Positions 2,099 to 32,750 of a DNA stretch of 64,000 nucleotides are shown piece after piece; the first letter of the stretch is position 1; the number at the start of each line of letters is the position of its first letter. The notes beneath the pieces are model-generated. The model worked only from the letters and a program-made list of their open reading frames with translations, was not told the DNA's origin and did no database searches. The DNA comes from Tubulanus polymorphus (taxonomy: Eukaryota; Animalia; Nemertea). Made by a program: the position numbers and the translations under genes. Where the stretch lies: the NCBI RefSeq assembly GCF_964204645.1, contig NC_134027.1, positions 14,974,485 through 15,038,484 of the forward strand, given 5' to 3'.

Positions 2099-5000
2099 AT
2101 AAATTGCCCATGGGCAAAGTGTGGTTTACCTTGAAAGCTAGTGGTTGTTTGGAGTAAGGGCATTGCTTGAAAAATCTTTTTAATTAGTGACTTCAAAGTT
2201 CCACAAGTTTGCATTGTATTTTATCTTTCTTAAAGAATTATTTTGTAGTCAAGTAAGACCAAAGATATACATTTGGTTACGGTCCATGTCCAAAAGTTTG
2301 TAGAGTACAGGTAGGCGTGGCAGGGAAATTATTTTATATTTTCCAAAAAAATTATTTTTCACAATATGAAAAAAATATTCAAATAAGGCCATCCCAAAAT
2401 AATTGTCTGTTTGCCGCAACACCGACTCAACTTTTCAGGATGAGTCGGTAGGTAAGAAAAAATTTTTTTTGCTTAATTTTTGGGCAAAAAAATTATCTTT
2501 TTACATGGAAACAATATCGCAAAGAACATCTACGTTGTGCACGGGAAATTTGTCTAATAGCGTACATTTCGAGAATTATTCTAAAATTATAACTTCGTCC
2601 AGAGCGTCATCTCTGTGTTAACTAGGGGTCCAGGGACACCATGCCCACTTGGGAAGTGGTTCCAAATGCTCAACAATCTAACAATTTCAATATTCAACGC
2701 CCCCTGGTGACATATACAGAATCCAATGACCTTGACACTCACCACAATCATAGAACATGTCAGCAGCTACGATTTTGTGATCGATTGTGATAACAAAATA
2801 TGCCTCGTTTAACTTTAATATGGAAATACTAGGTTATTCTACTATTCAACGCCCCCTGGTGACCATATTCAAAACCCAATGACCTTGGAACTCACCACAA
2901 TCATAGAACATGTCACGAACTATAACTTTGTAATTGATCATGGTAACAAAATATGCCTAGGTACCAATATAATAAGGAAATACTAAGTTATTCTACTATT
3001 CAACGCCCCCTGGTGACCATATAGAATAAGTAATGGCCTTAAAACTTGCCACAATCATAGATGATGTCATGAGCTATAACTTTGCAATTGATTGTGGTTA
3101 CAAAATATGCATTGATACGAATATAATATAGAAATACTAAGATATTGCATTATTCAACGCCCCCTGGTGGCCTTATACAAAAACCAATGACCTTGAAACT
3201 CACCACAATCATAGAACACGTTATGAGCTACAACTTTCTAAATGATTGTGGTAACAAAATACGCTTAGGTATCAATATAAAGTGGAAAAACTTTTTCCCA
3301 CTTACGAACGAGTACTGCTGACACCAAGATGGCCGCCAATTGCGTCATAATTGGCTGATGAAAAATACCTAACTCAGGTATAAAACCATATCAATGAGAA
3401 ATGATAAACCAGTAGGAAGATACAGGACTCAGAATTTGGGCCAAAATTAACATTTTTGGGCACTAAAAAGGTCATAGGACGGCCATCTTGAGTCCGATCG
3501 ACCCAATTTTTGTTATGCTGATGGGCCCTGGGGGAATTCACATATTCCGAAAGATCAAGGTAATTGATCAATTTGGCGAACACCAATGGCTGCCAGTCGG
3601 CCATCTTCAATCTGACAGGGCCAGTTTTTGGGCTGAAGATGTGTCTAGGGTAGATACATGTGTAACCCAAATATCAAGACATTACCTTGAAGCGTCTTCA
3701 ATACTTCCCAAAATAACTGGATTCCGTCTACGGACGGACGAAAAGTGAACGCAATAGCCCGCTGGGACTAAAGTCCCAAGTGGGCTAAAAACCAATGACC
3801 TTGAAACTCACCACAATCATAGAACACGTTATGAGCTACAACTTTCTAAATGATTGTGGTAACAAAATACGCTTAGGTATCAATATAATGTGGAAAAACT
3901 TTTTCCCACTTACAAACGAGTACTGCTGACACCAAGATGGCCGCTAATTGCGTCATAATTGGCTGATGAAAAATACCTGTCTCAGGTATAAAACATCCCT
4001 TTCCAAAGAATAACCATCACAAATTGCAATGAGAAATGATAAACCAGTAGGAAGCTACAGGACTCAGAATTTGGGCCAAAATTAACATTTTTGGGCACTA
4101 AAAAGGTCATAGGACGGCCATCTTGAGTCCGATCGACCCAATTTTTGTAATGCTGATGGGCCCTGGGTAATTCACATATATCCGAAAGATCAAGGTAATT
4201 GATCAAAGCGTCTTCAAAATGTCCCTCAAAAAGTTCAAAAATGTGTAAAAAGTGCTGATTTTGGCGAACAACAATGGCTGCCAGTCGGCCATCTTGAATC
4301 TGACAGTTTTTGGGCTGAAGATGTTTCTAGGGTAGATACATGTGTAACCCAAATATCAAGACATTACCTTGAAGCGTCTTCAAAACTTCCCAAAATAACT
4401 GAATCCCGTCTATGGACGAATGGACGGATGACGGACGAAAAGTGAACACAATAGCCTGCTGGGACTAAAGTCCCAAGTGGGCTAAAAATGAAAGAGTACA
4501 TTGAATATGTGGCGCTTTTACATTACCAGCTTTGATATAGTCACTATGAGAATGAATGGCAGCTTATTGGAACACTGCCAGTTTCCTGGAAAACTTAAAT
4601 TAGGCCACATTGACAAGGCATGTTTTCACACGATGCACACTTGAATTCAAACATATATAATACGTAGCTCATACGTAGGCAGTGGGTCGGTCGGCCGTTT
4701 TTTTATCAAAAATAAAATTTATTTCAATGAATCCCAGAAAAAAAGTTTTCACTCGGTACCTTTGAAGTCGGGTCGGTCGGGTTACGGCAAACAGACCATT
4801 AATATGGGATGGCCTAAAATTCATATGATGTCACATATCAAAGGGTGGCTGAATATTGGGTCATGGAAGCCTCTTCCAATGTTGGCCGCGGAAGTTAAAA
4901 TACCGGTACAGAAGAAATCAGTTATTAGATCGTTTTAAATCCTGGAATTTACGACTACAATATTCAGACCTCGACCTATACTTTTAGTTTGCTGTTTAAT

Positions 5001-5696
5001 ATTTTCAGGCCACAAGAAATTACAATTTATTACAAATTTTATCAAACAGAAAACACAGCGCTCATCTTCTGCTACTATTATTCAGCCTATTTTCATGTCA
5101 AACGCGCACGCGTTACAGCATCACCTTGAGTAGTGTACTGTACGAGCTTGTGTGTGTGTCGTGTAGCACTCTGCGCGCACAGGTGGAAGCCTCGTGTAAG
5201 TGATTGTTCGCTTACACTTCAATGTCAATCAAAACAATCACCGGGTATTAAAATGAAACAATACCTATGGCGGATGTGTGAAATAATAACATCCTCACCA
5301 GCAATGTGCATTTAAAATTTGCACGTATACGGCACCTAGTCCAATGAAACGTTCGCCATTCTATGGCTTTCCCATAGTTATTTTAGTAGCGCCGGAATTC
5401 CCCGTATATCCCAAAAACAGCCAATCCCATTCGCTCGTAGAGACGACACCCCCCAATCGAGGTAATTGCAATTTTATACGCGAGAGCTAAGAATTTTCCC
5501 GCCAAAAACAGTTTTTCGTAGAATTTTTACTCAGTTGACCATGTCATCGACGGAGGTTCGCCATGTGTTCAATCGCATCGAGTATACGTCGTTTAAGCCG
5601 AGAACCAATGAAACAAATGCTCACATAAAAAAACGTACCGCGATTTTACATGAATTGGCTCAACGCCAACATCATATCGCTGACAAAGGTAAACCA
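2099..5696 (-). mobile_element. Non-autonomous Helentron/Helitron2-like (HINE) element, family H, with a nested family-T insertion
   Basis: Same sequence as 22575-24300 apart from the nested insert. Subterminal inverted repeats tggtttacctt/aaggtaaacca and a terminal palindrome ttgcccatgggcaa; no TSD. Confidence 0.75.
2621..4483 (+). mobile_element. Family-T tandem-array element nested in the family-H element, with an internal partial duplication (~3181-3790 repeated at ~3791-4483)
   Basis: The empty site cttaaaaatgaaa is visible in the copy near 23104. 5' gcccacttggga and 3' tcccaagtgggc are inverted repeats; 3' hairpin gggactaaagtccc; ~153-bp units. Confidence 0.8.
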
Positions 5697-7692: not shown

Positions 7693-8825
7693 GTTTATTA
7701 AAGTCCTAAAACTCGCCATAAATTTGCGATAAATTTAAGCTGAAAATGATTTCAACCATCCGCCATCATGGCTGCATATTGTCCGCAGTAAATGACGGAT
7801 CCTAAACTGGTTACCGGTCTCTATCTTCAATTAGAGACCAGTTGTGCCCATCCTCCATTTTACATTTTCGATGCATGTCAAATAAGGTCAAACATGTAAA
7901 GTAGCAAATTACTTCCTGGTTAAGATGGCGTCTCTTCGAATCTGCTTAGCTTAGAGCGATATCAAAATTGCCCTTTACAATGGACGGAAAGACATTAATT
8001 GCTGTAAGTATCATATAAATCCGCTGATAATTTACCTGGTACTCGGAATACAAACTAACAAGGATCGAAATCTAATCAAAGGTGAGCTCTGTCACTGAAT
8101 ACAGAACATTCTGAAGGAACAGGGGACATCATTTCTATATCTACCGTTCGTGAGATGTATTTAGTGAATTGATGTTTTAATACAGGGTCGTAAAATGACT
8201 ATATTTACTATCTGAATAAAGTTTACAATTGTTAAACTCCTTAGTGCTATGTGAGATCAGATATTTGGATCCACCTCAGCCTCAGCCTGATTTCCTGATA
8301 CAGACAGCAAGTTGGGACAGTCAAATTAAGAGACTTGGTCAAGACAAGTTACTCAGATCACTGGAAATTCGCAATATCCTCTCTCCTCATGGACCACACA
8401 ATGTCAATGTTGACTTTGCTAGAAATCGATTATAAATTCATCACAACCAATTCTTTTTCACTGAATTCAATATTTATTGTTCACTTCTGGTACAAAATCT
8501 TGTTCAGCCCCTGACAAGAGAATAAGCAATGACACTACGTATTTCATGACATAGAACAGTAGTTTTTTTTTTTCATCGACAAATTGGGACGATCCTGATA
8601 TCCCTGATTTGATAAATAGTGTCTTTAGATTCATAAAGACTATGTCTCGACCAGACAGATAATCCAATAACAATTCAAATTGAAAGCTCGCTAGTTATTC
8701 ACAGAATCCAGCTCTTAAAACCTCATCAGTTTATCAGATCATGAGCAGTGGAGAAATAAAGTACTCAACATCTTGGCGCAGCGGCGCTTGCTGATGTAAC
8801 TGACGACAACGACAGTAATTGGGAA

Positions 8826-8883
8826 AGTGGGCTTTCATACCAGAGGACGAGAGGACGAGACACCACTCATCACCACAAGTAAT
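8826..8883 (+). repeat. Left terminal inverted repeat of the Polinton
   Basis: agtgggctttcataccagaggacgagaggacgagacaccactcatcaccacaagtaat is the exact reverse complement of 27128-27185. Confidence 0.95.
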
Positions 8884-8898
8884 TTTTTTTCCTAATAA

Positions 8899-11800
8899 AT
8901 GGGGGAGAATGAACACCAGCCAGAAAACAATGTTAATAAAAATCAATATTATTGCCAATATTGTAAAAAAATACGTCGATACATCTTATAAAACACGACA
9001 TGAAAAAACTGCAAATCATTTAAAAAATGTAATAGATTTTGAAACACCAGAAAATTCCAATGAAAGAAAAGAAAGATTAGAAAATATGAATGTGGATGAA
9101 ATAAAATGTGAAGTTTGTAATGAATTTATAGTAAAAAGGAATTATAATAGACATCTCGAATCACAAAAACACCATCAAAATTTGAGTAATAATGTTTTAG
9201 GAAAAGATTATTTCGATGATAAACCTCAAAAAGTAAAAAAACCAACTTCAAAAACTAAATCCATTTAAAATAAACCTTACATGGAAAATGTTAGAAATTA
9301 TATTGATTCACTAGAAATAAAAGATACAATTGAAATTTTAGAAACATAACATAGTAAAATTGGTCCTGCAGCTATTATATTTAGATTTTTTAAAGGTACA
9401 ACAATAGAAGATTATAGTAAATTTAATGAAATAATAGAAAAAATACTAGATTTGATAACAGATGTTGAATATCCAAAAATTAGTATCTCTGGGAAAGTAC
9501 GTTTTATAAAGTCAGAAGAAAAAATGGATTATAATATTCAAACACACTCTGAAGAAATAATTTCAAAAACACAAATAAAAGAGAAGTTAGAAAAAATATT
9601 TAATGAATTTAAACGTCATATTGAAGAAAGATATTTTGAGGGTTCTGGCTTAACATTGAATGAAATTATATATTTAGATTTAAATGTTTACAATACAAAA
9701 AGGAATAAAACATCAAAAAGTAATAAAATGTTTAAAAATGATTCAAACTTTACAACAGAAAAGGATATTAAAGCATCATCTTATATTAAATTACCATTTA
9801 CAACAAAAGCAGTAATAAATGTTCAAAATGAAGATAATAAATGTTTTCTATGGTCAATTATTAGTTGTTTACACCCAACAGAAGATATGACGCATAGTTT
9901 TAGAATAACAAATTACCGGAAATATGAAACATTATATAAAATTGATCAATATCCAGTAACTATAAAAATGATTCCTAAAATAGAAAAAGTTAATAATTTA
10001 AAAATAAATGTATTCGAATTAATGCAATTACCAAAGACAAAAGGTGAAAATATTAAAGATTATACATTGGAAGCTTTATATTCAACAGAATATTATGATG
10101 ATGAAAATGCTATAGATTTGTTATATTACAAAAAAAGATGAAAATGAACATTATATGTGGTTAAAACAAATTGATTTATTCTTTAGAACAGAAAGTGATC
10201 ATCATCATAAAATTTATCTATGTAGAAAATGTTTATCTAAATTTATGACTGAGAATACATTATTAAAACATAAAGAATTATGTGATAATAAAGAATTTTG
10301 TAAATTAATAATGCCAACAGAAAAAGATTATAAATTGAAATTTACTAATCATAAATTTAAGAATATTGTTCCATTTGTAATTTATGGGGATTTTGAATCG
10401 TTGAATAAAGAATTAACTGATCAAGATAGAAAAGAAATATATAACAAAAAGCAATTTCTAAAATCAATGGACAAAGGAAATGAATTAAATGAAGACATAA
10501 TTCAAGACCCACCAATCATAAATACAATTAAAAAAGTTCATCAAAGAGCTGCTGCTTATGGAATTTATATAAAATCAAATTATCCTGAATTATATGAAAG
10601 TCAATATATTTCTTTTAGAGGTGAAGATGTAGTTAATGATTTTTGTAACAAAATGATTGAATTAGAAAGTGATTTTGCAAAATTATTAAACAAAAATAAA
10701 AGAATAGTTATGACAAAAGAAGATGAAATTGATTTTAATTATGCAACTCATTGTTGTTATTGTGAAAAACGTTTTTATTCATTTGATAAAAAAGTTAGAG
10801 ATCATGATCATTTAAATTCAAAATATCGTGAAGCTGCTCATGAAGATTGTAATTTACAAGCTAAAAAAGTTAATTTCGTACCAATATTATTTCATAATTT
10901 ATCAGGTTATGATACCCATCTATTTATAAAACAATTATCAAGGGAATTGGGCACAATTAATCAAGAAATAGAAGAATATAATGCTATGAATGGTGTAAAT
11001 GTAAGAAAATATGATTTTAAACTATTAGCTAAAACATCTGAAAATTATATTTCATTTCAATTTGGTTGCATTAGATTTTTAGATTCTTATAGATTTCTAG
11101 CAAGTTCATTAGATAATTTATCAAAAAGTTTAGTTGATAATGATTTTGTTATAACTCGATACTATTATCCAAATGAACAAGATTTCAAATTATTGAGATA
11201 TAAAGGCGCAATTCCTTATTCATTTTATAAAACACACAATGATTTTAATGTAACAGAATTATTAAAAGATCAATTTTATGATCAATTAAAAGAGGAGTAT
11301 GTGAAAGACGATGTGTTTAATAGAACATTAAATATTTGGAACCATTTTAAGATGAAAAATCATGGTGAATTAGTTGATTTATATTTAAAAATCAGATGTT
11401 ATGATATTGGCTGACATATTTGAAAAATTTAGAGAAGTTAATTTGAATCATTTTAATGTTGATCCTTGTTATTGCTACTCTAGTCCTGGTTTAACCTGGC
11501 AATGTGGTTTAAAATACACAAATGTAGAATTAGATTTATTAAAAGAACCAGACATGGTTTTATTATTTGAAAAATCAATTAGAGGTGGAATTAGTGGTGT
11601 TATGGGAGATAGATATTTTAAAGCAAATGATGAATATAAATTATTATATATTGACGCCAATAATTTATATGGCTGGGCAATGATGCAACCCCAACCATAC
11701 AAAAATTTAATATTAACAGAAGTTGAAAATGATGATAAAACTGATTGGGAAAGCGCAATTGCGAGTTTAAAAGATGAAGCACCAATTGGTTATTTCTTTG

Positions 11801-13980
11801 TAGTTGATTTAGAATATCCTGAAAATATAAAGTTTAAAACAAGAAACTTACCTTATTGCCCAGAACATTTAACTGTAGATGACAGTTATTTAAGTGAATA
11901 TCAGAAGAAAATAAAACCGAAAGATCATGTTTTTACAGAAAAATTAATACTTACTCAAAATAATAAATATAATTATATTGTTCATTATAGAATGTTAAAA
12001 TTTTATCTAAAACAAGGAATGAAATTAAAGAAAGTACATAGATATATTGAATTTAATCAATCGAAGTGGTTAGAAAAATATATAGATTTTAATACTCAAC
12101 AGAGAACCATATCAAAAACAGATTTTGAAAAAGATTTCTTCAAATTAATGAACAATAGTTTTTATGGTAAAACATGTGAAAAAACTAGAAATAGAAATGA
12201 TATTGAATTAGTAAATAATTCTGAAAGATTAAGACATTTACAATCAAGTCCTAGACATTTAGGAAATAAAAGATTTGAAGATTATTTAACAGCAGTTAAA
12301 TTAAAAAGAACGTCAATGAAATTTAATAAACCTATATTCATTGGTTCAACTGTTTTAGAAGTATCAAAATTATTAATGTATGATTTTTATTATAATGTTT
12401 TACAACCACTTTTTGGGGAAAAGCATATTGAAATATTATATTTTGATTCTGTAACAGCTGACACCCCAATATTATTAAAATGTAATGATAAAATATTGAT
12501 AAGAAGAATTTCAGAAATAATTCCAAAACAAAATCAATGTTATATTTCATATGGTGAAAAAGAATTAATACAAATAAATGGATTAATGGATGTTTGGACA
12601 AGAAATGGATGGAAAAAATTAAAGAATATTATTAGGCATAAAACAAATAAGAAAATCTATAGAGTTAGAACTAAATTAGGGTTTGTAGATATTACAGAAG
12701 ACCATAGTTTAATTAAACGAAATGGTGATGAAATAAAACCAACTGATATAAAAATTGGAGATGAGTTATTACATAAAAGATTTTTCCAATGAATGAATCA
12801 TATGTCATTTGATGAAATAATTGATAATATTTATAACATAGAACCCGAAACATTAGAAGAAAAAGAATATTTTATCAAAGGATTTTTCATGGGTGATGGT
12901 TCAGCAGGCGTGTATAATTATGTTTGGGGTAATAAATATTGTTGGTATTTATGCAATCAAGACTTAAAATTATTAGAAAGAATTAAGAAATTCTGTGAAG
13001 AAGTTTATTCACATAAAACATTCCAAATCATAGATGTTATGAAATCATCGCAATGTTATAGAATACATGTGAATAATCCTAAAGATTTTGCTATAAAATA
13101 TAATGATGAATTCTATATTCATGCAATAGTGAAAAGTAATACTTCAACAAAAGAAAAGATAGTACCAGATTATGTATTAAATGCAAAAAAATAATTTAAG
13201 AAAGTGGTTCTTCATTGGATTCTATGCCACAGATGGCACTAAAAAATTTACAAAGGATAAAAAGACAAAAGATAAAAAACATTTGCACAGAAAGGAAAAG
13301 TTGCTATATCAGGATTAAATATATTATGCAGTTCATTAGGATTTAATATGAATATAGAATTAATTAAATCTAAACCAAATTGTTTTAATTTAAGGCATGT
13401 AGAAAAAGAATTAACAGAAGAAGTTAAAGATTTATTTGAAATATACAACCCAACAGATTATGCTTATGATTTATCAACAGATGATGGAACATTCAATTCT
13501 GGGTTCCCATTAATCCAAAAAAATACCGACAGTTACATACTAAAAATCAAGACAAATGACATAACAAAAGACTTAAAAACATTAAACCATCATTTTGATT
13601 TTAGCAATTATCCCAAAGATCATGAACTATTTAGCAATGATAATAAAAAGATTCCTGGTAAGTTTAAAGATGAATTAGGGGGTGATGAAATGATTGAATT
13701 TGTTGGGATAAGAAGTAAAATGTATAGTTACAGAACAAAAGATCATGAAGCTAAAAAGTTTAAAGGAATAACAAAACATGTGGTTGATAAACATATAGAA
13801 TTTCAAGATTATATAAAGTGTTTATATAAATCAATTGTAATGAAACACAAAATGAATTGTTTAAGATCAGAAGATCACGAGATGTACATTAATGAAGTTG
13901 AAAAAACTAGTTTGAATCCATTTGATGATAAAAGGCATATTTTAGATGATGGTATAAAAACATTACCTTATGGCCATTAA
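8899..13980 (+). pseudogene. polB: Protein-primed family B DNA polymerase (pPolB) with N-terminal zinc fingers, a vOTU-like segment, an exonuclease with an HNH/EndoVII-like insert, and an intein; disrupted
   Basis: Joined from ORFs 8819, 9452, 10155, 11401, 12793 and 13348 across frameshifts in A-runs and in-frame stops; likely start is the ATG at 8899 (MGENEHQ...YYCQYC). Motifs: Exo I IYGDFES, Exo II FHNLSGYD, FLDSYRF, motif A YIDANNLYG, motif B KLMNNSFYGK, motif C YFD/TDS (split by the intein), GKFKDE, SKMY, KGI, FDDKR. Confidence 0.95.
12448..13524 (+). mobile_element. Intein (Hint splicing domain plus LAGLIDADG homing endonuclease) in pPolB motif C
   Basis: 1077 nt, net in frame between YFD and TDS. 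Block A SVTADTPILL; block B VDITEDHSLI; block C FIKGFFMGDGS; block E WFFIGFYATDG (in a shifted frame, 13205-13237); block F AYDLSTDDGTF; block G LIQKN|T. Confidence 0.93.
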
Positions 13981-15304
13981 AACATAAAATCAATATCATC
14001 ATACTCGAAATCACTATTGGCTTCTTCATTTTCATTTAATTGTTCTTGTATAATTTGTTTAGGTTCTTCTTCCATTTCATTTTTCTCATTTAAATAAAGT
14101 TCTATCTTGTTCCACATTTCATCTCGCTCTCTTTGTTTCTTTTTGTTTGTTAATTCGTCAAATGGAATTATAATATCTATGTTTAAATAATTTACAATCT
14201 TAATTAAAAAGAATTCATAATTAATTGAATCTGTTATTCTATTTCTCAAATGATACATTAATATTTGTTTAAATATTTTTTTTATATTTACCATATCTTC
14301 TTCTGTTAATTTAGGTTTTTCATAATAATCGTTAAATAATAAATATAAATACATTTTCTTTTCTTTTGTGTTAAATGTTTATGGAATAATTGTTTTTATA
14401 ATATCTTTTTTAGTTATTTCACCATTTTTATTTTCTATTATTTTCATTTTTTCAAGCCATTGCATATATTCTGGTGTATGATCTTCTATAGAAAATATTT
14501 TAAAAATTTCATCTAGATAATTTAATTTTGGTTCTATGAGAAAATTTCTAGTTTTTTCTTCACCCCATAAATTCTTTTGCCATCCACAATAAACACAAAA
14601 TAACACAGTACCTTCTTGTCTTAAGGTCGCGTAATTACATTGTGGGCATTTTCGTTTATAATTTATTGGTAATAGATCTTCATTAAGCTCTTGGTATTTT
14701 CTTACGTTTTCTTTATGTTTTATTGTTCTATTATGTAGATTTGAATTACTTGTTGTAATAATCAATTTACAATATTTACAATAATATGTTTTTCTTGTTA
14801 ATTCATTATATTGTTTTTCTAACTATTCAACTGTTTCTTTATTATCTGGTAACGTTTTCCCATATTTTATTTTTTCTAATAAATTATTTTTTCTTTCATT
14901 GAATTCAGTTTCAAATTTATTAGAAATTTTATCTATATGTGCTTTACGAAATTGATGATTCAATCTTCTATATTTTCAGGGCTATATTTCATTCGACAAG
15001 GCTCACAGAAATGATCTTTTATATTATCCTTATCATAGAATAAGAAAGGTCTTTTACAAATAACTTCAGGTTCAACTTCAGCAGAATTACTATTACTTTC
15101 GTTACTATCAACATTAGCCGTTGCGCCATTAATTTTACACTTCTCTGAATGTTTTTTAACATAATTTCTTGAAAATAATTTATTACATTTTGGACAGTTT
15201 AGTTTAGGGGGTTTATAATTTTCATCATGTTTTTTCATATGTCGAGCCATATTACTTTTTCTTAGAAGTTCACCACAAATTTCGCATGGTATCTTCTCAT
15301 CCAT
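13977..15304 (-). pseudogene. Multi zinc-finger protein fused to a poxvirus VLTF3(A2)-like transcription-factor domain; disrupted
   Basis: ORFs starting at 15304, 14765 and 14354 join across frameshifts and stops. N-terminal CxxC...H fingers, then CPQC...G..FCVYCG, and a C-terminal F...INYEFFLIKIVNYL...D.MWNKI pattern typical of VLTF3-like proteins. Confidence 0.65.
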
Positions 15305-15360
15305 TTATTAGGGGAAAAAATTACTAGTGGTGATGAGGTAATTTTTTTATGTTATAAATA

Positions 15361-16121
15361 ATGGTAGAATTAAAAGAATACAGAATATTTGTTGATTCTA
15401 GAAAACTTACAAATTATAATTCACATAATTTATTAGTTCAATTAGATAGAGAATTCAAGAATTGTGTAGATTTAAAATTAGTTAATATAAGTTTATGTAA
15501 TTCTTTTTATAATATATCGGATAAAACTATTGAACATAGAGCCTTTTTAATTTTTGATAAAGGTAAAAATGAATGGTCCTATATATATTTAAAACCGGGG
15601 TTATATAATTTAGATACATTAGCACAAGAAATTAATAGAAAAGCCTGGCACAAATTAGGTAGTAGTTCTGGGTTTAGTATTAGATTTTTAAAAAGTGATA
15701 GTTCTGATAGAATAAAGATAAGGTTGTCTAATAGTGAAAAACATAAATTTATGGTAAAAAAACCTATAGCTAAACTGTTAGGAATTCTTCCAGATATATC
15801 TTTTAAAAATATTGATGCTGTTACACCAAACTTAATACCTTACACACATTTTTATATTTATTGCAATTTAATCGATCCTACAAAAACATTCGAAGCAACT
15901 AAAGATATAACTTGTAATTCTGGTTTACTAAACATTTTACCATTGAAGAATGTTAAAGAATTAGGAACGCAAATAAATTATAATTTAACAGAATGTGATT
16001 TCAAACCATGCATTCCTCGTTTAATAATTTTAGATTAGAAATTAGAAATCACAATGGTTACTTAATTGATTTAAATAATTTCCCTGTAATTTATGAATTA
16101 GTTATAAGATGTACAGAGTAA
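15361..16121 (+). pseudogene. Minor capsid protein (penton, single jelly-roll), C-terminal frameshift
   Basis: IFVDSR...YNI...PGLYN...FYIYCNLI...LLNILP. The shifted frame continues as FRLEIRNHNGYLIDLNNFPVIYELVI, a typical minor-capsid C-terminus. Confidence 0.75.
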
Positions 16122-16137
16122 TTTTTTCACTATATAA

Positions 16138-16392
16138 ATGAATATAACTGTTGGACCGAGTATATGTTTTGGGTTTGATTTTAAACATGGTAAAGAAATG
16201 AGAATTAAACTAAATGATGTAATTACTGATATAAAAAGTAAATCATTTAACAATGCATCAATGATTAATAAAGAAAACTATAATATAGAAAAAGTAATTG
16301 ATTTAATCAAATCACCTTTAGAATATTATGAATTAAATGAAGATGGAATTATTGATGATATTAAAAACATAATGAAACAAATGTTGAATTAA
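16138..16392 (+). CDS. Polinton hypothetical protein (84 aa)
   Basis: Intact ORF preceded by the element's TAATTTTTT...ATAAATG motif. Confidence 0.65.
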   Translation: MNITVGPSICFGFDFKHGKEMRIKLNDVITDIKSKSFNNASMINKENYNIEKVIDLIKSPLEYYELNEDGIIDDIKNIMKQMLN

Positions 16393-16445
16393 TCATCACT
16401 AAGATAACTAAATATTTTGATGATAGTAATTTTTTTGATGAATAA

Positions 16446-16664
16446 ATGAGTGATAATAAGTGGATAATAACTGGATTATATAATGGAGCATTACTATCAG
16501 TTGGAACTGTTGGTTATTCAATGGTATTAAAAGTATTTAAAATGGGAAGTGTTAATGTTGATAGATTTGATATAAATGATATCTTAAAATTAACATTAGC
16601 AGTTACTTTATCCAATTTAACTATTGATTATTTGGAAAAACAAAAATATATTCCTCCCATATAA
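16446..16664 (+). CDS. Small Polinton membrane-type protein (72 aa)
   Basis: Two hydrophobic segments; shared start motif. Confidence 0.7.
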   Translation: MSDNKWIITGLYNGALLSVGTVGYSMVLKVFKMGSVNVDRFDINDILKLTLAVTLSNLTIDYLEKQKYIPPI

Positions 16665-16688
16665 ATGTGTAATTATTTTACTAAATAA

Positions 16689-17111
16689 ATGGCTTCTGTA
16701 ATTATAACTATTATAGGATCGGCAATTGTTAACGCTTTAGCATTTACTGGTGGTGGATATTTATTTAAGCATATTGATAAAAATGGATCATTAACAGAAC
16801 AAAAAAGACATAACTTAGCATTAGAGAAATACAATAAAGCAGCAGAAGAATACAGAGAAAAACGACAAAACTATATGGATTATATTAACAAGGAATTATA
16901 TGATCAGAAGATTTCACATAGAGATTTTCAATCAGTTGATGATGCAATGAGTTTATATAACGCGGTAACCAATAAAGAAAAATTACATCTATACAAACCT
17001 AAATTATCAGATTATTATACCCCAAGTAAAGAACAACAGAAATATGAAATAATATGGATTTTAGGTGGAACAGTTATTGTTATATTTGTAGCATATAAAT
17101 TTACTAATTAG
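16689..17111 (+). CDS. Polinton protein with N- and C-terminal hydrophobic helices (140 aa)
   Basis: MASVIITIIGSAIVNALAFTGGGYLF...EQKRHNLALEK; C-terminal TM helix; shared start motif. Confidence 0.75.
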   Translation: MASVIITIIGSAIVNALAFTGGGYLFKHIDKNGSLTEQKRHNLALEKYNKAAEEYREKRQNYMDYINKELYDQKISHRDFQSVDDAMSLYNAVTNKEKLHLYKPKLSDYYTPSKEQQKYEIIWILGGTVIVIFVAYKFTN

Positions 17112-17130
17112 TAATTTTTTTTCTAAATAA

Positions 17131-17589
17131 ATGGAAGATAAAGTTGATAGTATTGATATTATTCCTCATGATATAAATAAAACTAAATTAAAAACATATT
17201 AAGAAAAACAAATATTAGAATTTGAAAATGACTTAAAGATAAAAAAGAAAAAATATTTAAAAAGTAAAATTATATATTATCTTATTATTAGTGGTTCGGT
17301 TACAATTAGTTCTGTAATAACATTTCTCGCAATATTCAGTCCATTAACACCTTTAGCTATATCAATTGGTGTATTAGGATTAAGTTCAAGTGTTTTAACT
17401 GGTATAAGTTCAAAATTAAATATAAAAAGTAATAAAGAAAAAATTAAAACTAATATAAAAGAAATTAATAAATTAAAGAATGCACTAGGTTATATAAGTT
17501 TGAATGGTCATATTACAGTTGAAGAACAAGATAAATTATTAAAAGAATTAATAAATTATAAATTTTTTAATTATATAAATGGCAGATAG
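17131..17589 (+). pseudogene. Two-TM coiled-coil Polinton protein with one premature stop (17200-17202)
   Basis: ATAAATG start. Reads MEDKVDSID...*EKQILEFE...IIYYLIISGSVTISSVITFLAIFSPLTPLAISIGVLGLSSSVL; not in the supplied ORF track. Confidence 0.65.
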
Positions 17590-18929
17590 TTTTCCAAAAG
17601 CTTTCCAATATAATAAATCAATTAAATATAATATTCCAGCAATAGATTTTAATAAAGATATTACATATAGAAATGAAGTTTTAGATTCATTAACTAATTT
17701 AGAAATTTATGTTACTGAAACTAATAATTTTAATGCAAAGATGGAAAATATATTTCATGTATATTTAATTAATTTTAAAAAATTGAAAGATGAAAAACAA
17801 TGGTTATTAAAATCTAATATAAAGTTTTGGCAGAACCAATTAAATTTTGCTGTTTATTGTGCAACAACAGGATGTGGAATTAGTTGGAATGATCATTTGA
17901 ATAATTCTAAATATAAATTAATTCAAAGTTTATTTAGATTTCATACATACTTTCAAATCAGAATAATATTAAATGAATTAGAGTATGCTTTACCAGGATC
18001 TAGATATTTTAAAGAAATTTGTAATGAATTTAATATAGATATAAATAATTCTGATTTTAGAACAAAAATTGGAACAATAAGATCACTTCCTTGCCCTAAA
18101 AAGATTGCAGAATATTGTGCACTTCCCATACCATCTAATAGTTTATATAATATCTATAGTAATAAATTAGGTGGTAAAATAGAAACTAAGGATTTAGAAA
18201 CATTCAATTTCAATAAATTACCGACATTTTATGATAATTCAAAACAAGAAAACAATAATGGTTGGGTTTATTTCATTTTAGAAATAATAATGAAGGTTTT
18301 ACAAAATCAGGTATACAAAGAATAAATCAATCTATTAGAACTTATTTGATATGTATTTTAGGTGCGCAAGTTGAAACAATATCCCCAATAATTGGAAATT
18401 TAAATACATCATTTGATACACAGAAACAATTCAAAGTATTATTTGAAGATTCTATTCATAATGATAAAAATAGATCGATTCCAGAAAACATTGTAAGATA
18501 TCAAAATTATTTAGATAAATCACATATTAGATTAAATTATTGTATAGGCCCTAATCTATTAATTATTTCTAATGATTTAGTATTAAAGAGGGAAATATAA
18601 TTGGTTATAATAATCTAATTAAAACTGCAACAATAAATAATTCATTTGGATTGAATGATATAAATAAAAAGATTATTACTGCTCCAAAATTAATGGAAGG
18701 TGAAAAAAATAAAAAACACATTCAATCAACAGAAACTAAAACTAATAATATCAAATTAAATAATGATTCTAAAATAAAAGATTAAAATACATCAGAAGAT
18801 ATAAAAACTGATAACATTCAGTATGAAATAATTAAACTAAATGATGATAATAAATCCCATGAAAATACTAAATTAGCTTTAACTTGTATAGGAATTGTAA
18901 TCGGAGGAATATTATATTTTAGATTTTAA
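17579..18929 (+). pseudogene. Polinton protein of unknown function (WQNQLNFAVYCATTGCGIS motif), frameshifted, C-terminal TM
   Basis: ORFs 17579 and 18262 plus a shifted tail ending in a hydrophobic helix (LALTCIGIVIGGILYF). Confidence 0.65.
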
Positions 18930-18939
18930 TTTTTTTATT

Positions 18940-20382
18940 ATGTTAATGGAAGAAGGTGGAGAAGATTATGAAATGGAAGGCATGGGAAATAATGATGATG
19001 CCAATACAAACGATGATGATTATATGACTGCTGATACTAATATTGATAATGATAATGATACAACATATAATTCTAATTTAGCAGATAGTGGTTCTAAAGC
19101 CCCATCAACAGATGAATTTGATAGAAGAACTAGGTCGAGAATACCTCCTGAAAATTTAAATCAAGGTTTAGAAAGAGAAAATTTTGAAAATTATGAATTT
19201 ATGTATGATTTTCAACGTGTATTTAAAGATTCTGGATATAATATAAATAATAGAGGCGCCAGACTTTTAGTACAAGATTTAAAGTTTTTAGATGGTGAAT
19301 ATTATTATCGTGTGAAAGAAAAATCGGATTATTATATTAATATCTCTAATAAAAATCAAGACAAAATAATAGCAAAATCAACTTTGCTTAAGTCTGACTC
19401 ATTACTATCTAGAATTAAGAGAATAAGAAATAGTAATGAAATAGAAGATGTAACACAAGAAGAAATAAATCAAAATAAAAGAGTATTTAAACGAAGAATT
19501 AATAAATTATTTGAAACAATCAAAGATAATCCAAAAACAGAAACAACTTCTGAACAGAATATAACTTCCAAAACTAGTAAACTTAAATCAAATAAAGTTC
19601 CAATTGAAAAACTTTTACCAAATGGATTAATTGATGCAACAGACCAACAATTAGAAGATTTAAATAATATATTTTCTGAAAAAGCAATAAGATAAAATTG
19701 CGCATGATAAAAGTATAAGAGATTTAAAAATAGAACTTTAGAAGATGAATTATTTAAATCAAGAAAAGAATCGGAACAACTAAAATTAGATAGAGATAAT
19801 AAAGTTATTGAAGAAATCGAATTTAAAAAAAGAAATGCATATTTAGAAAAAGAAATTGATGATTTAGAATATAACATAGAATTACAAAAAGAAGAAATTA
19901 AATTATTATTAAAATCATATGATTATTATATTAATAGATTAAAAGTTATTTTTAAAGATTTATTGATAAAACCAAATTCTGAAATATCATTGAAAGATAG
20001 AATAAAGTTATTATTTAAATTAGAAGGAATAACAATTCTTTCAATTCTAACAGCTGTAACTATGTTATTTACAACAATTGGTTTAGCAATATCAAATGCT
20101 TTAAAATCTACTCCTACTCCAAATAAACCAGATAAACCCCCAGATAATAATTCTATACAAGATAAAGTTAAGGATGGTTTAAAGAAATGAGCAAAATATT
20201 TATGGGAACTATCTAAAAAATCTGCTGCAGCTTTACCAGGAGTTATTGCATCAATTGTTGGTTTTATATTGAAATCTGCAGGAAATATTCTTAACTTTGC
20301 TGCTGAACATATTATTTTATTCTTAATTACAGTTGTAAGTGCTATTATTTTTGGGCTAGTGAATATGATTAAAAATAAATGA
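18940..20382 (+). pseudogene. Large acidic/coiled-coil Polinton protein with C-terminal hydrophobic helices; disrupted
   Basis: ORFs 18940 and 19963 and downstream read-through: LFKLEGITILSILTAVTMLF...KKSAAALPGVIASIVGFIL. Confidence 0.65.
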
Positions 20383-20402
20383 TTAATTTTTTTGTTAAAT
20401 AA

Positions 20403-21650
20403 ATGAGTGGGAGTTATATAAGTCCTTCTAAGATTTCTAGAATATCTAATGCTATTAAAGCAGAAAGATCTCATCATATAATTACTCATAATCCTTCAAA
20501 TATTAATCCCGATGAAACTTTATATGTTAGAATTCCTAGATTAACACAAAATACTTTTTATGTTCCAAATAGTATTTATTTATCAGCCGATATAAAAGTA
20601 ACCGGTCATGATAATAATTATGTTGTCGATAATGTTGGAAGATATTTGATTAAAAAATTAACTATAAAGATTGGACCAGAAACAGTTTTCTCATTAGATG
20701 ATTATAATTTATTTATGCATTATAAAGATTTATGGTTAACTAAAGAAAATAGAAATAATATGATATTTCAAGGCATCCAATCAGAAAACCATAATAAATT
20801 AAGATCAGGAGCTAATGACGCAATAGTAACTCGTGCCACTGATAATTTGATTAAAAAGATTTATGGAAGCAAATATAAAATTCCATTAGACTTTGAATTG
20901 ATAAATAATAATGCACCTTTACATAAATACGCAATTCAAGAAGATATTATATTTGAGATAACATTTGCTCCTGTAAATGAAATTGTATTATCTAGCGTTG
21001 TTTAAGATATGGGTTATAAATTATCAAATATATGTTTAGAATATGACACAGTAACTAATGAAAATATTGCTAGCACAATTCAAACTCAATACAATCAAGG
21101 ATTTTCATTATTATATGATTATATTGATAAATTTAAAACTGTAACTATTAATGCAAATGATGAAATAATTAATGAGAATATTAACTTCCCAAGAAGATCT
21201 ATTAAAGGTATATTAATATCTTTTACCATTGCAACATATACTAATGGCGCAATAAATGTTGATAATTATTATAATCCTGAAATAACAAAAGTAGAAATAA
21301 CTATCGAAGGAATAGCAAATAAATAATTTTGTCAAGGAATGAGAATGATAGATCAATGGCCAGAAATTAGAAAACATTTTATGAATGAAAAAGTAAAATC
21401 ATTTGAAAATTGTAATATTAATCAAATTGATTATTATACCGGTAATAAACATGCATTATGGTTAGATTTTAGAACAACAGAGGATAATTCATTACATGGT
21501 TCTGGAAAAAAATTACAAAACACTAAAGATGGAATACAATTATTCATGACAAAGAAAAAAGGGAGCCTAAATTTCAAAATGCATATTTATATTATATCTG
21601 ACGCGCAATTAAATATTATAAATTCACAATTAGATAGTATTCAATATTAG
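20403..21650 (+). pseudogene. Major capsid protein (double jelly-roll), two in-frame stops
   Basis: ORFs 20403, 21009 and 21339 are all in one frame (~415 aa): HNPSNINPDETLYVRIP, DNVGRYLIKKL, NINFPRRSIKGIL, YYNPEITKVEITIEG, ALWLDFRT...HGSG, IISDAQLNI. Confidence 0.8.
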
Positions 21651-21680
21651 AAATATAAAGTTAAAATTAAGGATATATAA

Positions 21681-24529
21681 ATGGGTGGTAAAAAAACTCC
21701 TAATACTAAAGAACAATATTTAAGAAATTTATATTACAACCCCAAGTTCGGTTGCTTATTCTTCTACCAAAAATATATGGCGTCAAGTAAAACAAGATAA
21801 ATTAGATAAGATAATCCCACAAAATTTAGTTAAATATAAAGATATAAATGAATTTATGTTAGAACAACCAACATACACAACACATAAAAAAATTGTTAGA
21901 AAATATAAAACTCGTAAAACTATGGTAAGTTATGTAGATCAACAGTGGCAAGGAGATTTAATTGATATGAAAAATGTTAAGAAAGATAATGATGATTATT
22001 GGTGGTTATTGAATATAATTGATATTTTTAGTCGTTATGTATGGAGTTTCCCACTTTATAGAAAAGATGCTGTACAAACATCAAATGTTTTAAGAAAATT
22101 TCTTTCAGATGATAAACTAAAACCAGAAAAAATACAATTTGATGATGGAAAAGAGTTTGATAATTCACTTGTTCATGAACTCTTAGATAATCATAATATT
22201 AAATATTTTTCAACAAAATCGGATAAAAAAGCAGCAGTTGTTGAACGATTTAATAGAACATTAAGAACAAGAATGTGGAAATATTTTACAGCAAATAATA
22301 CTTTTAAATGGATTGATGTTTTACCAAAATTGATAGAAGGATATAATAATTCTTATCATTCTTCTATTGGAATGAAACCTATTGATGCTAGAAAACCTGA
22401 AAATGCTGAAATTGTTTGGAATAATTTATATGGAGCATTTCTTGTAGATGATTTTGGTGAACCTAAATTTAAAGTTGGTCAAAATGTTAGAATTTCTAAG
22501 TATAAAAAGATATTTGACAAAGGATACGATCGAAATTTTACTAGGGAAATATATAAATAAAAAAGGTAATAACAATAAATTGCCCATGGGCAAAGTGTGG
22601 TTTACCTTGAAAGCTAGATGTTGTTTGGAATAAGGGCATTGCTTGAAAAATCTTTTCAATTCCTGACCTCAAAGTTCCACAGTTTATATCGAATTTTATC
22701 TTTCTTAAAGAATTATTTTGTAGTCAAATAAGACCAAAGATATACATTTGTTTACGGTCACAAAATTTTGTAGGGTACAGGTAGGCGCGGCAGGGAAACT
22801 ATTTTATATTTTCAAAAAAATATGTTTCAAAATATGAAAAAATATTCAAATAAGTCCATCCCAAAATAATTGTCTGTTTGCCGTAACACCGACTCAACTT
22901 TTCAGGATGAGTCGGTAGGTAGGTAGAACTTTTTTTTTGCAAAATTTTTGGGAAAAAAAAACAAATTTTTTATCTTTGGGCTTTTTTAAATGGAAACAAT
23001 ATTGCAAAAGAATCATCTACGTTGTGCACGGGAAATTTGTCTAATAGCGTAGATTTAAAGAATTATTCTAAAATTATAACTTTGTCCAGAGCATCATCTC
23101 CGTCTTAAAAATGAAACAGTACATTGAATATGTGCGCGGTTTTACGTTACCAGCTTTGATATAGTCACTATGAGAATGAATGCCAGCTTATTGGAACACT
23201 GCCAGTTTCCTGGAAAACTTAAACTAAGCCACATGTCAAGGCATGTTTTCACACGATGCACACTTGAATTCAAACATACGTAGCTCGTCGGCAGTGGGTC
23301 GGCCGTTTTTATCAAAAATAAAATTTATTTCAATGAATCTCAGAAAAAAGTTTTCACTTGGTACCTTTGAAGTCGGTCAGTCGGGTTACGGCAAACAGAC
23401 AATTATTTTGGGATGGTCTAAAATTCATATGATGTCACATATCAGAGGGTGGCTGAATATTGGGTCTTGGAAACCTTTCCCAATGTTGGCCACGGAAGCT
23501 AAAATACTGGTCAGAAGAAATCGGCTATTAGATCGTTTTAAATCCTGGAATTTACCACTACAATATTCAGACCTCGACAGACCTTATAGTTTGCTGCTTA
23601 GTATTTTCAGGTCATAAGAAATTACAATTTATTACAAATTCTATCGAACAGAAAACACAGCGCTCATCTTCTGCTACGATTATTCAGCCTATTTTCATGT
23701 CAAACGTGCACACGTTACAGCATCACCCTTAGTAGTGTACTGTACGAGCTTAAGTGTGTGTGTGTGGTGTAGCACTCCGTGCGCATGTGGAGGCCTCGTG
23801 TAAGTGAATATTCGCTTTCACCTCAATTTCAATCAAAACAATCACCGGGTATTAAAATGAAACAATACCTATGGCGGATGTGTGAAATAATTACATCCTC
23901 ACCAGCAATGAGCATTTGAAATTCGCACGTATTCGGCACCTAGTCCAATGAAACGTACACCATTCTATGGCTTTCCCATGATTATTTTAGTAGCGCCGGA
24001 ATTCCACGTATATCCCAAAAACAGCCAATCACATTCGCTCGTAGAGACGACGCCCCCCAATCGAGGTCATTGCAATTTTATACACGAGAGCTAAGAATTT
24101 TCCCGCCAAAAACAGTTTTTCGTAGAATTTTAACTCAGTTGACCATGTCATCGACGGACGTTCGCCATGTCTTCAATCGCATCGTTTATACGTCGTTTAA
24201 GCCGAGGACCAATGAAACAAATGCTCACATAAAAAAACGTACCGCAATTTTACATGAATTGGCTCAATGCCAACATCATATCGCTGACAAAGGTAAACCA
24301 ACAAAACCATATGTCTATAAATTAGAAGATTTAGATGGTGAAGAAGTTGATGGCTACTTTTACGAAGAAGAATTAAGTTTAACTGCTAAAACTCTAGAAC
24401 AAGAATATAAAATTGAAAAAGTATTAAAAACAAAAACTATAAGAAAAAAAATATTCTTTAGTAAAATGGGTTGGATGGCCAGATAAATTTAATGAATGGA
24501 TATTATCAAGTAAAATTAAAAATATATAA
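21681..24529 (+). pseudogene. Retroviral-like (rve, DDE) integrase with C-terminal chromodomain, split by a 1726-bp insertion
   Basis: WQGDLIDM, IDIFSRY, QFDDGKEF, VERFNRTLR. Resumes at 24301 as TKPYVYKLEDLDGEEVDGYFYEEEL...YKIEKVL...VKWVGWPDKFNEWI (chromodomain). Confidence 0.92.
22575..24300 (-). mobile_element. Family-H Helentron-like non-autonomous element inserted into the Polinton integrase
   Basis: Removing it restores aag gta ata aca|aca aaa cca (KVIT|TKP). A|A (TT) target, no TSD, subterminal inverted repeats plus terminal palindrome; second copy at 2099-5696. Confidence 0.85.
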
Positions 24530-25138
24530 ATGAATAAGGAATTATTTATATTTGAGCCTCATAATATGTTAATTTCTGGCGTAACAAATTGTGGAAAAAC
24601 TTATTTTATATTAAATTTATTAGAAACTGTTTATGAAAACTATTTTGATAATATAGTATTATTTTGTCCAACATATGAATTTAATCAAACTTATGATAGA
24701 TATATTACTAGAAATAATAAATTTATTATATTAGATCCTAAAACAGTAAAAGAAAATTTAGATAATTGTATAAAAATAGCAATTGATATTTATAAAGGAT
24801 CAAATACATTATTTATCATAGATGATTGCGCAAATTTACATGATTCAAAAGTTAGAGAAAGTGAGTTATGCTATTTAGCTTTTTCTGGCAGACATTTTGG
24901 GATAACAACTTGGGTTTTAAATCAAAAATATAATTCAATTGTTAAAGACTTTAGAGAAAACATTAGATTTCTAGTTTTATTCTACAATAAAGATAGAAAA
25001 TCGATGAAAAATGCACTTGAGGAAAATGATATTATTCCACATGATTCACATAATGAATATATGGATAAGTTGAAAGATATTAAAAAATCAAAATTACTAT
25101 TTAGATTACAACACCCATTTAAATATGAATTTATTTAA
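24530..25138 (+). CDS. A32/FtsK-HerA-like DNA packaging ATPase
   Basis: Walker A GVTNCGKT, Walker B FIIDD, GRH and NQ motifs; intact 202-aa ORF. Confidence 0.92.
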   Translation: MNKELFIFEPHNMLISGVTNCGKTYFILNLLETVYENYFDNIVLFCPTYEFNQTYDRYITRNNKFIILDPKTVKENLDNCIKIAIDIYKGSNTLFIIDDCANLHDSKVRESELCYLAFSGRHFGITTWVLNQKYNSIVKDFRENIRFLVLFYNKDRKSMKNALEENDIIPHDSHNEYMDKLKDIKKSKLLFRLQHPFKYEFI

Positions 25139-25412
25139 ATTCAACTAGCTTGTTAATCTAGTTGAATTCTAGTTACATTCTAGTTGAATTCTAGTTATTG
25201 GTAGTTGTAACAAAAATCAACTAGATTAAACAATATTTTAACTAGCTTGTTAATCTAGTTTAATTCTAGTTACATTCTAGTTGAATTCTAGTTGTTAGTA
25301 GTTGAAACAAAAATCAACTAGATTTAACAAGAAATAAACAAAAACAACAATATTTCAACTAGCTTGTTAATCTAGTTGAATTCTAGTTACATTCTAGTTG
25401 AATTCTAGTTGC
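25139..25412. repeat. Intergenic tandem/palindromic repeat block (three ~100-bp units rich in CTAG and GAATTC)
   Basis: caactagcttgttaatctagttgaattctagttacattctagttgaattctagtt occurs near 25142, 25239 and 25355. Confidence 0.85.
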
Positions 25413-25442
25413 AACATCACAACTAATTTTTTTGTTATATAA

Positions 25443-26048
25443 ATGGTAGGTGAAAAGAAAATAAAATCTAAAAATGGTGATGTTCCAATTGAAAAAACTT
25501 TAGATGATTTAGGAATAACAGAAAACAAATTAATTCCAGATGATGGTGCTTTAAATAATGTTACAACAAATAATAATTATGAATATTATCTTTACTGTAA
25601 ACATCAATTAGAAATATTAATAGCATCTGGAAAATGTAAAAATTTTGTCGGTAAAAATTTAACTTATAATGAATTAGATACAATGAAATCAGATGAAATT
25701 ATTAGATTATTTAAGATTTATGAAGCCGCGAGAACAGCTAGAATTAAAGACGCGATATCAGAAAATGTAGTAAAAGGTTATAGTAAATTATGTAATTATA
25801 TACTACCAATTGAAGATGAAAATAGATTATATTCCGATTTAAAAAATGATTATTTAGTTATGACTGAATTAAATAAATGGATTGGATATTTATCATTTCA
25901 ATTAGGTGGATTTATGACATTATTATCAACTGGGGTTATAACATTTTCAAATATTGAAAGTAAAAATTTTTCTATAATAAATGAGCGAGGTGGAAGAAGT
26001 GAAGGAATTAACTGTGAAGAAAAAACCGAGATCACAGAAACAAATTGA
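25443..26048 (+). CDS. Polinton hypothetical protein (201 aa)
   Basis: Intact ORF; shared start motif; C-terminal hydrophobic segment. Confidence 0.7.
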   Translation: MVGEKKIKSKNGDVPIEKTLDDLGITENKLIPDDGALNNVTTNNNYEYYLYCKHQLEILIASGKCKNFVGKNLTYNELDTMKSDEIIRLFKIYEAARTARIKDAISENVVKGYSKLCNYILPIEDENRLYSDLKNDYLVMTELNKWIGYLSFQLGGFMTLLSTGVITFSNIESKNFSIINERGGRSEGINCEEKTEITETN

Positions 26049-27127: not shown

Positions 27128-27185
27128 ATTACTTGTGGTGATGAGTGGTGTCTCGTCCTCTCGTCCTCTGGTATGAAAGCCCACT
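27128..27185 (-). repeat. Right terminal inverted repeat of the Polinton
   Basis: Exact reverse complement of 8826-8883. Confidence 0.95.
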
Positions 27186-27453
27186 TAATGGTTCAGAATC
27201 CATTTTTCAAACTTACCTTAATGCATTGCAATCTATTCTTTTCATGTTGAGCTAATTAGATACACATTACTTCAATTTCTTAAAACATCCTACGAGTTGG
27301 GACTCACAAACTCATCACTAAAACGCTCACAATAATCTACAATAGATAATCAATATAGTGATTGTGAAATAGCACTCATATTCAATGTTCACATTTTTAC
27401 GAAGTAAGTAAGTAGGTGAAATTACCTTGTTGATGTCATTATTTTCACTGGAT

Positions 27454-32545: not shown

Positions 32546-32750
32546 TCATAAGGGGGAGCTACTAAGTAAAAGTAGGCGTTTGAACTCAAAATTGGGATAG
32601 ACATGTATATCGTAGCGGTAAAAAACATGCCAGGGTCACTAAAGTCATGTACAAATCTTGACATACTTAGTGTGAAAAGAATATGGAAAGGTCAAGAGAG
32701 AGACTAACTATACAATTAAACAGCAATAACCCTCATTGCTGAATATATAC

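Follow-up and report, generated by a model that had tools for sequence, protein, structure and literature searches.

What has split the catalytic motif of a mobile-element polymerase in Tubulanus polymorphus, and how did it come to lie there? In the window, by which we mean the whole analyzed stretch of 64,000 nucleotides from NC_134027.1 and to which all coordinates refer, motif C of a protein-primed family-B DNA polymerase (pPolB) is divided between YFD and TDS by 1077 nucleotides, i.e., 359 codons (12448-13524). The initial annotation had described an insert that starts with Ser, ends in Lys-Asn before a Thr and is net in frame, and had taken it for a homing-endonuclease intein in a Polinton of an animal genome. 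The coordinates and junctions are exact, with ILYFD/SVTADTPILL at 12448 and YDLSTDDGTFNSGFPLIQKN/TDSY at the end of the insert at 13524 (here and below, the slash marks the insertion point), and the length is a whole number of codons, yet two stops and two compensating frameshifts lie inside, so that "net in frame" holds for the length only. Such an insert is noteworthy, as the nuclear genomes of animals are to this day described as lacking inteins, the available part of a 2026 preprint calling them unknown there.

The carrier is a Polinton-type element of ~18 kb, recognizable by its pPolB, retroviral-type (rve) integrase, A32-like packaging ATPase and terminal inverted repeats. The left repeat (59 nucleotides, 8825-8883) is 100% complementary to the right arm (27128-27186), which appears to lack ~12 nucleotides relative to the left end. 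The left end proper is probably at 8814, and the loose ends of 766 reads of run X5 lie before this position. A 6-bp target-site duplication, a feature of Polinton/Maverick elements, was not seen at the ends, the right one of which appears shortened. On the plus strand, the N-extein of the polymerase (8951-12447) comprises three frame pieces (~8951-10129, 10149-11390 and 11389-12447; tblastn with P0133, 50-70% identity), with motifs A and B in the last of them, and the C-extein (13525-13980), which begins with TDSY, has 79% identity to P0133. No Pfam family matched the polymerase pieces alone; the N-extein is 59% identical to P0001, which carries PF03175, and this supports the protein-primed class that had been assigned to the polymerase. 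The remaining genes include a VLTF3-like piece on the minus strand (13977-14378; PF04947, E=5.3e-6) and, on the plus strand, a probable major capsid protein with stops inside (20403-21650; Capsid_N, weak, E=0.0014), the integrase (21724-22560; PF00665, E=1.3e-10), which is shortened by an inserted host repeat, and the ATPase (24530-25138; PF04665, E=1.1e-14). A host repeat at 23602-24242 is 90-93% identical to flanking sequence at 5000-5638. The cysteine protease, present in most group 1 Polintons and variable elsewhere, had no match among the scanned open reading frames of at least 100 amino acids, a scan that a decayed gene could escape. G+C is ~21-26% over most of the Polinton vs 33-42% in the flanks.

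Some further features of the element are recorded here for their own sake. The motif AGTAATTTTTTT...AAATAAATG, a candidate viral promoter or translation signal, recurs just upstream of many of the start codons in the Polinton and overlaps the terminal repeat (positions 8878, 15294 in reverse, 16117, 16425, 16669, 17110, 20382, 24509, 25412 and 26811 in reverse), and a 97-nucleotide repeat with internal palindromes is present in three copies between the ATPase and the next gene (25140-25450). Summed contig depth, which is no copy number, reached 23,000-199,000 over the Polinton (8656-22599) in run X1, compared to 855 in the flank bin 7992-8655, while the same Polinton bins gave 0-524 in X2 (flank 116) and 204-1026 in X5 (flank 309); amplified or free Polinton copies, or a different library type, are possible reasons for the X1 values.

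The limits of the insert are fixed by natural empty alleles, as these are uninterrupted at the same spot. The five nearest intein-free polymerases, 70-86% identical to the window N-extein, have a continuous HIEIMYFDTDSYILK at motif C; P0131 (86% identity) and P0132, P0133 and P0135 (70-71%) are all uninterrupted at the insertion site, and exact insertion relative to empty alleles is seen against P0131-P0133 and P0135 as well as in the pair P0119/P0122 described below. The insert, on the plus strand, begins with block A and its initial Ser (12448-12477), followed by block B with the TxxH motif T-E-D-H within VDITEDHSL (12694-12705), a first LAGLIDADG motif (block C, FIKGFFMGDG; 12871-12900), a second one that is aligned in relatives and lies in another frame than the rest of the intein (block E, FFIGFYATDG; 13208-13237), and blocks F and G (13459-13524), which end in GFPLIQKN before the extein +1 Thr. 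Blocks A, B, C, F and G are in frame, block F reads YDL and has its Asp, and motifs A, B, C, E, F and G align with those of uninterrupted relatives. The residues of an Asn-type intein are present in the window copy, namely Ser as the first, Asn as the last and Thr as the extein +1 residue. The penultimate residue is Lys instead of the usual His in the window copy, P0003 and P0119, Ser in P0001 and His in P0158; 44 of 103 rows of relatives retrieved by regular expression end in K-N and 22 of 103 in H-N, with 24 rows being false matches. According to the available text of PMC5874633, absence of the penultimate His is a known intein variation.

Profile searches support the assignment of the insert to the inteins, as a pol-c allele with a LAGLIDADG endonuclease. 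Translated in a single frame, with each stop written as X, it scored 29.2 bits against TIGR01445 (cut-off 24.5), in keeping with the Hint domain expected of it, and E=2.6e-5 against Pfam Intein_splicing (PF14890), which is under the gathering score. No hedgehog Hint family was matched in the Pfam scan of the window, and no hedgehog resemblance was seen at the junctions printed for the top 150 representatives, of which 122 have exteins that match RNA-primed PolB. In total, the window intein found 1919 matches at E<=0.001 among 1.84 billion representatives, and it is 58% identical to the uninterrupted intein of P0001, 43% to those of P0002/P0119 and P0003 and 44% to that of P0158. A PDB sequence search with P0001 gave one match, a weak one to PI-PkoII, and an Atlas search with the P0158 intein returned LAGLIDADG and intein clusters, all <0.9. 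An AlphaFold model of the uninterrupted P0002 (53-row alignment; pLDDT ~82-98 over the intein) has its best PDB matches in endonuclease-inteins of archaea and yeast, namely TliVMA, PhoVMA, PI-PkoII, PI-PfuI and PI-SceI (E 2.7e-15 to 1e-10), and its best viral matches (BFVD) in phycodnavirus, Pandoravirus, Megavirus and Marseillevirus polymerases. The predicted combination of Hint and endonuclease fold is thus a property of the P0002 model, and the window has both LAGLIDADG motifs in its DNA; a single-sequence fold of the window copy reached a pLDDT of 38 and was uninformative.

The window copy makes neither polymerase nor intein protein and is a decayed member of its family only. Within the intein, there is a premature stop at 12790-12792 and, between two cancelling lesions, an out-of-frame stretch at approximately 13190-13275 (both on the plus strand), which has a stop at 13192-13194 and holds the second LAGLIDADG motif; frameshifts near 10130-10150 and 11390 disrupt the polymerase as well. 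Where the window copy is broken, many run X5 reads that stem from other copies differ from it, hence the lesions are not family-wide. P0001, P0003 and P0158 are uninterrupted, and the inteins of the relatives measure 339-354 amino acids. The proposal that polymerase activity depends on splicing is therefore restricted, as a prediction, to these uninterrupted relatives, because the window copy cannot make polymerase at all.

As for the surroundings, three exons of a host ELMO gene lie on the minus strand at 32711-39254, separated by introns of 2.5-3.3 kb (Pfam; human ELMO1, E=2e-11), and a check of 126 short frames on the minus strand gave no additional ELMO exon. A LINE-type endonuclease-reverse transcriptase with an 881-codon open frame occupies 54986-57631 on the minus strand, its nearest Atlas clusters being eukaryotic and most commonly from Arthropoda, which is no more than a lead, and pieces of DUF5641 retroelements lie at 63091-63624. 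Many of the intein relatives sit on contigs of 0.1-1 Mb. The intron-rich ELMO gene and the retroelements indicate that the host of the Polinton is likely an animal, and to this extent the placement in an animal genome given in the initial annotation stands; its physical side is weaker, as no contig or read among those listed joins the Polinton to the ELMO gene.

Where the intein came from can be approached through its relatives. Polinton-type inteins form one clade with an SH-aLRT of 100 in two trees (14 of 14 in the tree of 82 rows, 11 of 11 in that of 60 rows), which is nested in both among the inteins of RNA-primed family-B polymerases. These were quick IQ-TREE searches, with SH-aLRT only and with the root, on which the direction of transfer read from the nesting depends, at the midpoint or on three distant rows; five badly extracted sequences and two near-duplicates were left out of the larger tree, and 15 of 84 full-length representatives entered the smaller one. 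The exact sister group varies between tree runs. Searched as a DNA pattern, the C-terminal GFPLI signature matched 15 IMG/VR contigs, 13 of them named GVMAG, and comparison of sister-group proteins with the GVMAG contigs showed that P0005 is L013 and that P0006 and L025 share 99.7% identity. Between the window intein and GVMAG inteins, identity is 34-37%, and Polinton and giant-virus exteins have no BLAST match to each other better than E=5. Nearly all intein homologues are inserted at YGD/SV. The single archaeal relative ranks 88th of 98 among the window-intein matches, and viral_contigs, searched with P0001 and P0002, yielded no relative. The most likely donor, judged from these comparisons, is a giant-virus PolB; thus, from the earlier suggestion of an RNA-primed viral or archaeal PolB, the viral part is supported, with GVMAG PolB inteins rather than archaeal ones as the nearest. 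The pol-c designation is borne out by the YxD/TDS site given in the available text of PMC549080, with which the homologues and the trees agree.

Several relatives lie outside the polymerase lineage of the window. In P0003, the same intein family is housed by a protein-primed polymerase of a very different kind (PF03175; of the VSR-bearing pPolB2 type by eye), with no BLAST similarity to the window polymerase and with inteins that are 41-46% identical, and it would follow that the intein crossed between polymerase classes. By contrast with the Polinton clade, P0092 represents a second, unrelated pol-c intein lineage in a pPolB that is phage-like by eye, an independent invasion; a single origin of all pPolB-borne inteins was rejected (AU p=2.9e-6). 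P0004, P0321 and P0324, T4-like polymerases by eye, have inteins of the GFPL/GTPL subgroup, to which giant-virus and Polinton inteins belong as well, a hint of intein exchange between phages and giant viruses. Related inteins are found in type II topoisomerase-like proteins (P0043, P0076, P0391 and P0459), and the lineage would therefore have reached a non-polymerase site.

Polymerase copies with and without the intein, for which the initial annotation had suggested a search, were both found among the database relatives. P0119 (plus) and P0122 (minus) have flanks that are 99.7-100% identical and differ by a 339-amino-acid intein and almost nothing else. In the P0158 cluster (136 members), the 15 members listed comprise seven plus alleles, six empty alleles and two that do not cover the site, and seven plus alleles of 1537-1539 amino acids keep full open frames. 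Among the best 120 of 7559 extein matches there are 6 plus and 105 empty alleles, 6 other variants and 3 that end before the site. The intein label is scattered over the polymerase tree: on an N-extein tree of 59 rows, thinned from 128 by removal of near-identical empty alleles and built without the last ten residues, it requires 11 changes for 12 plus rows vs a shuffled mean of 11.1. The trees place the intein family as a clade across several divergent Polinton polymerase lineages, and it is not a one-off. When metagenomes were scanned with P0102, 12 loci matched, all of them to its C-extein only; 6 of the 12 had an empty site and none the intein.

The sequence next to the insertion site bears on how the intein spread. 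Within the large clade, 7 of 9 plus alleles have Cys at position -5, as against 1 of the 92 empty ones, in a Fisher test that ignores relatedness and in which most plus rows are truncated proteins. In the P0158 family, each of the six empty alleles departs from P0158 at 4 of the final 8 N-extein residues and at 0-2 of the 52 preceding ones, with 5-8 differences in the first 20 residues past the site. Flank residues that track the intein, together with its scattered distribution, are likely the mark of homing or gene conversion; selection for escape alleles, the bolder reading, would leave a similar flank pattern. Motif C is normally near-invariant in polymerases. In the large clade, only 22 of the 92 empty alleles keep YMD/TDS, while YMD is present in all nine plus alleles, and altered sites are found in all six empty P0158-family alleles; motif C has 22 variants compared to 7 for motif A and 10 for motif B, a comparison that is biased by the stricter patterns for A and B. 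Separately, we noted that the motif-C Thr is replaced by Cys in 38 of the 105 empty sites among the best extein matches (P0146-P0249), and that TDA and TDG variants occur too. Depth of run X5 over the intein core is ~60% of that in adjacent polymerase bins (206 vs 308-357), which fits a mixture of plus and minus copies and also fits divergence, and no intein-skipping joint is among the 15 joints listed in this run (688 further).

We regard it as very probable that the insert is a decayed pol-c LAGLIDADG intein in a Polinton pPolB, likely in an animal genome, which arrived through what was likely one jump from a giant virus and likely spread by homing. In an intact element, the precursor would splice canonically, with an acyl shift at Ser1 that is helped by the Thr and His of block B, followed by attack of Thr+1 and cyclization of the Asn. 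Splicing would bring the catalytic halves of motif C together again, and replication would therefore depend on it. The freed endonuclease would cut empty motif-C sites wherever other Polinton genomes share the cell, and in repair templated by an intein-plus copy, the intein would be transferred plus a few flank codons. RNA-primed and protein-primed family-B polymerases have very few conserved stretches in common, and YxD/TDS is one of them, which would explain how a jump between polymerase types was possible. The window copy would have integrated with the intein and later decayed together with the whole element.

The same intein and donor could also be reconciled with vertical descent from an early intein-plus Polinton polymerase, followed by many precise losses and no ongoing homing. 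This is very improbable in our estimation. The Polinton inteins are one clade whose tree partly follows the exteins (the window groups with P0102, and the large clade stays together), and a position of P0003 as sister to all other Polinton inteins is not rejected by the AU test (p=0.26), both of which suit vertical inheritance. The 105 empty alleles against 6 plus alleles would, in contrast, demand very many precise losses, and a loss would spare the flank, yet the flank residues track the intein in the proportions given above (7/9 vs 1/92). Both endonuclease motifs are intact in 4 of 4 uninterrupted Polinton inteins checked, which likewise argues against descent without homing, as does the P0003 polymerase, whose intein resembles that of the window (41-46% identity) while the polymerases themselves have no BLAST similarity. 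A non-splicing endonuclease or Hint-like insert, of the HNH/VSR type of pPolB2 or of the hedgehog type, which merely looks like an intein or inactivates the polymerase, would be compatible with the lack of the penultimate His in most members and with a Pfam Intein_splicing score under the gathering score for the window copy, and we give it hardly any credence: Ser1, TxxH, the block-F Asp, the terminal Asn and Thr+1 are all there, the seven plus alleles of 1537-1539 amino acids are fully open even though their catalytic motif is split, no hedgehog Hint match was found, 122 of the top 150 exteins match RNA-primed PolB, and the phage-like pPolB intein of P0092 is a separate lineage (AU p=2.9e-6).

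The location of the element is a distinct matter, as the Polinton could lie outside an animal chromosome, whether as a contaminant, as a mis-joined viral sequence or in an ELMO-bearing eukaryote other than an animal. In its favor, the examined stretch is spanned by none of the listed contigs and reads, no target-site duplication was seen, and ELMO genes also exist outside animals. This explanation is nevertheless very improbable. Reads of run X5, which belongs to a separate study under the same species label, cover 30 of 30 bins of the examined stretch; the loose ends of its 766 reads before 8814 are unlike each other (agreement 0.35), as expected of many insertion sites; and the host repeat of the flank has its 90-93% identical copy inside the Polinton. 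Against it stand also the match of the ELMO exons to human ELMO1, their multi-kilobase introns, the eukaryotic and most often arthropod clusters nearest to the LINE, with the reservation made above, and the DUF5641 pieces.

A bolder extension of the preferred reading is that the intein actively spreads among Polinton copies in animal cells, including the germ line, and thereby drives motif-C escape alleles of the form YxD-[T/C]-D-[S/A/G]. This seems possible and is put forward tentatively, since we would sooner doubt than accept it; it draws its support from the altered motif-C sites of the empty alleles and the number of motif-C variants given above. If true, it would amount to a natural intein gene drive with an arms race in metazoan nuclear DNA, and to a record of Polintons and giant viruses replicating in the same cells. 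Virophages are known to share cells with giant viruses. On the more conservative reading, too, genes have passed from giant viruses to Polintons, a record that is relevant to the question of whether both share cells.

For the absence of inteins from animals, the window provides a concrete exception, albeit one in which an endogenous virus, rather than a cellular gene, carries the intein. The surprise is tempered by the nature of this carrier, by the inteins already known from endogenous viral polymerases of algae, and by the fact that the window copy is dead. With plus and minus alleles that are nearly identical, it becomes testable why animals lack inteins, and since elements with inteins evidently reach such genomes, the barrier may be homing into host genes rather than access. 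The initial annotation knew of no described case, and a literature search likewise found no description of a Polinton intein family, with subscription journals, Repbase entries and bioRxiv supplements outside its scope. The available parts of PMC12220804, PMC3671162, PMC5874633, PMC9939771, PMC5718144 and PMC13768754, and of bioRxiv 10.64898/2026.09.14.751524 and 10.64898/2026.06.19.733378, hold no description of it either. The clade of pol-c inteins in Polintons is thus apparently undescribed so far.

Among known systems, the archaeal PolB pol-c inteins and the solved endonuclease-inteins are far more distant from the Polinton intein than the giant-virus inteins are, with just 10-14% identity in the fold matches. 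The Chilo iridescent virus carries its intein in ribonucleotide reductase. It infects animals (cited in PMC549080, available text), and in contrast to the window insert its intein is of the glutamine type and its carrier is a large insect iridovirus that is not integrated into chromosomes (PMC549080, same part). Archaeal PolB pol-c inteins, PI-PkoII, PI-PfuI and TliVMA have the two-domain fold in common with the P0002 model, and the archaeal pol-c inteins also share the insertion site with the Polinton intein, pol-c being their site as well in the available text of PMC549080.

Within eukaryotic nuclear genomes, intein-bearing viral DNA polymerases have been endogenized in Klebsormidium, Tetrabaena and a labyrinthulomycete, as reported in the available text of PMC10710043. 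Like the window copy, these are inteins inside the polymerase of an endogenous virus; unlike it, they belong to algae and a protist and to virus-like polymerases (PMC10710043). The main text of that study does not mention Polinton, Maverick, metazoa or animal, nor do two of its supplements mention Polinton, Maverick, Metazoa, adintovirus or protein-primed. Closer in terms of the carrier are the nuclease inserts of the HNH and VSR types known from the pPolB2 of Polintons (PMC10748475, PMC11071308, available parts), which, like the window insert, place an endonuclease domain within a Polinton polymerase. These sources report no splicing domain or LAGLIDADG for them in the parts available, in contrast to the whole intein in the catalytic motif of the window polymerase; the text of PMC10748475 has no occurrence of intein or LAGLIDADG, and one supplement none of intein. 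In its available part, PMC11071308 speculated that such inserts stem from intein invasions, and the present family would take intein invasion of Polinton polymerases from this speculation to a documented case with splice residues. The closest likeness is to the Mimivirus PolB intein and other pol-c inteins of Nucleocytoviricota. The Mimivirus intein has the YGD/TDS site, Ser first, Asn last and Thr at +1 (PMC549080, available text), just as the comparison drawn at the outset had stated, and the Polinton intein shares with this group the YxD/TDS site, Ser, Asn, Thr +1, TxxH and LAGLIDADG; the Mimivirus intein measures 351 amino acids (PMC549080), similar to the 339-354 of the uninterrupted Polinton-type relatives. 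The two differ in their carriers, as the window intein sits in the protein-primed polymerase of a Polinton, for which BLAST gave no similarity to giant-virus exteins, and which is borne by an element of 18 kb that integrates and that lies in what is likely an animal chromosome.
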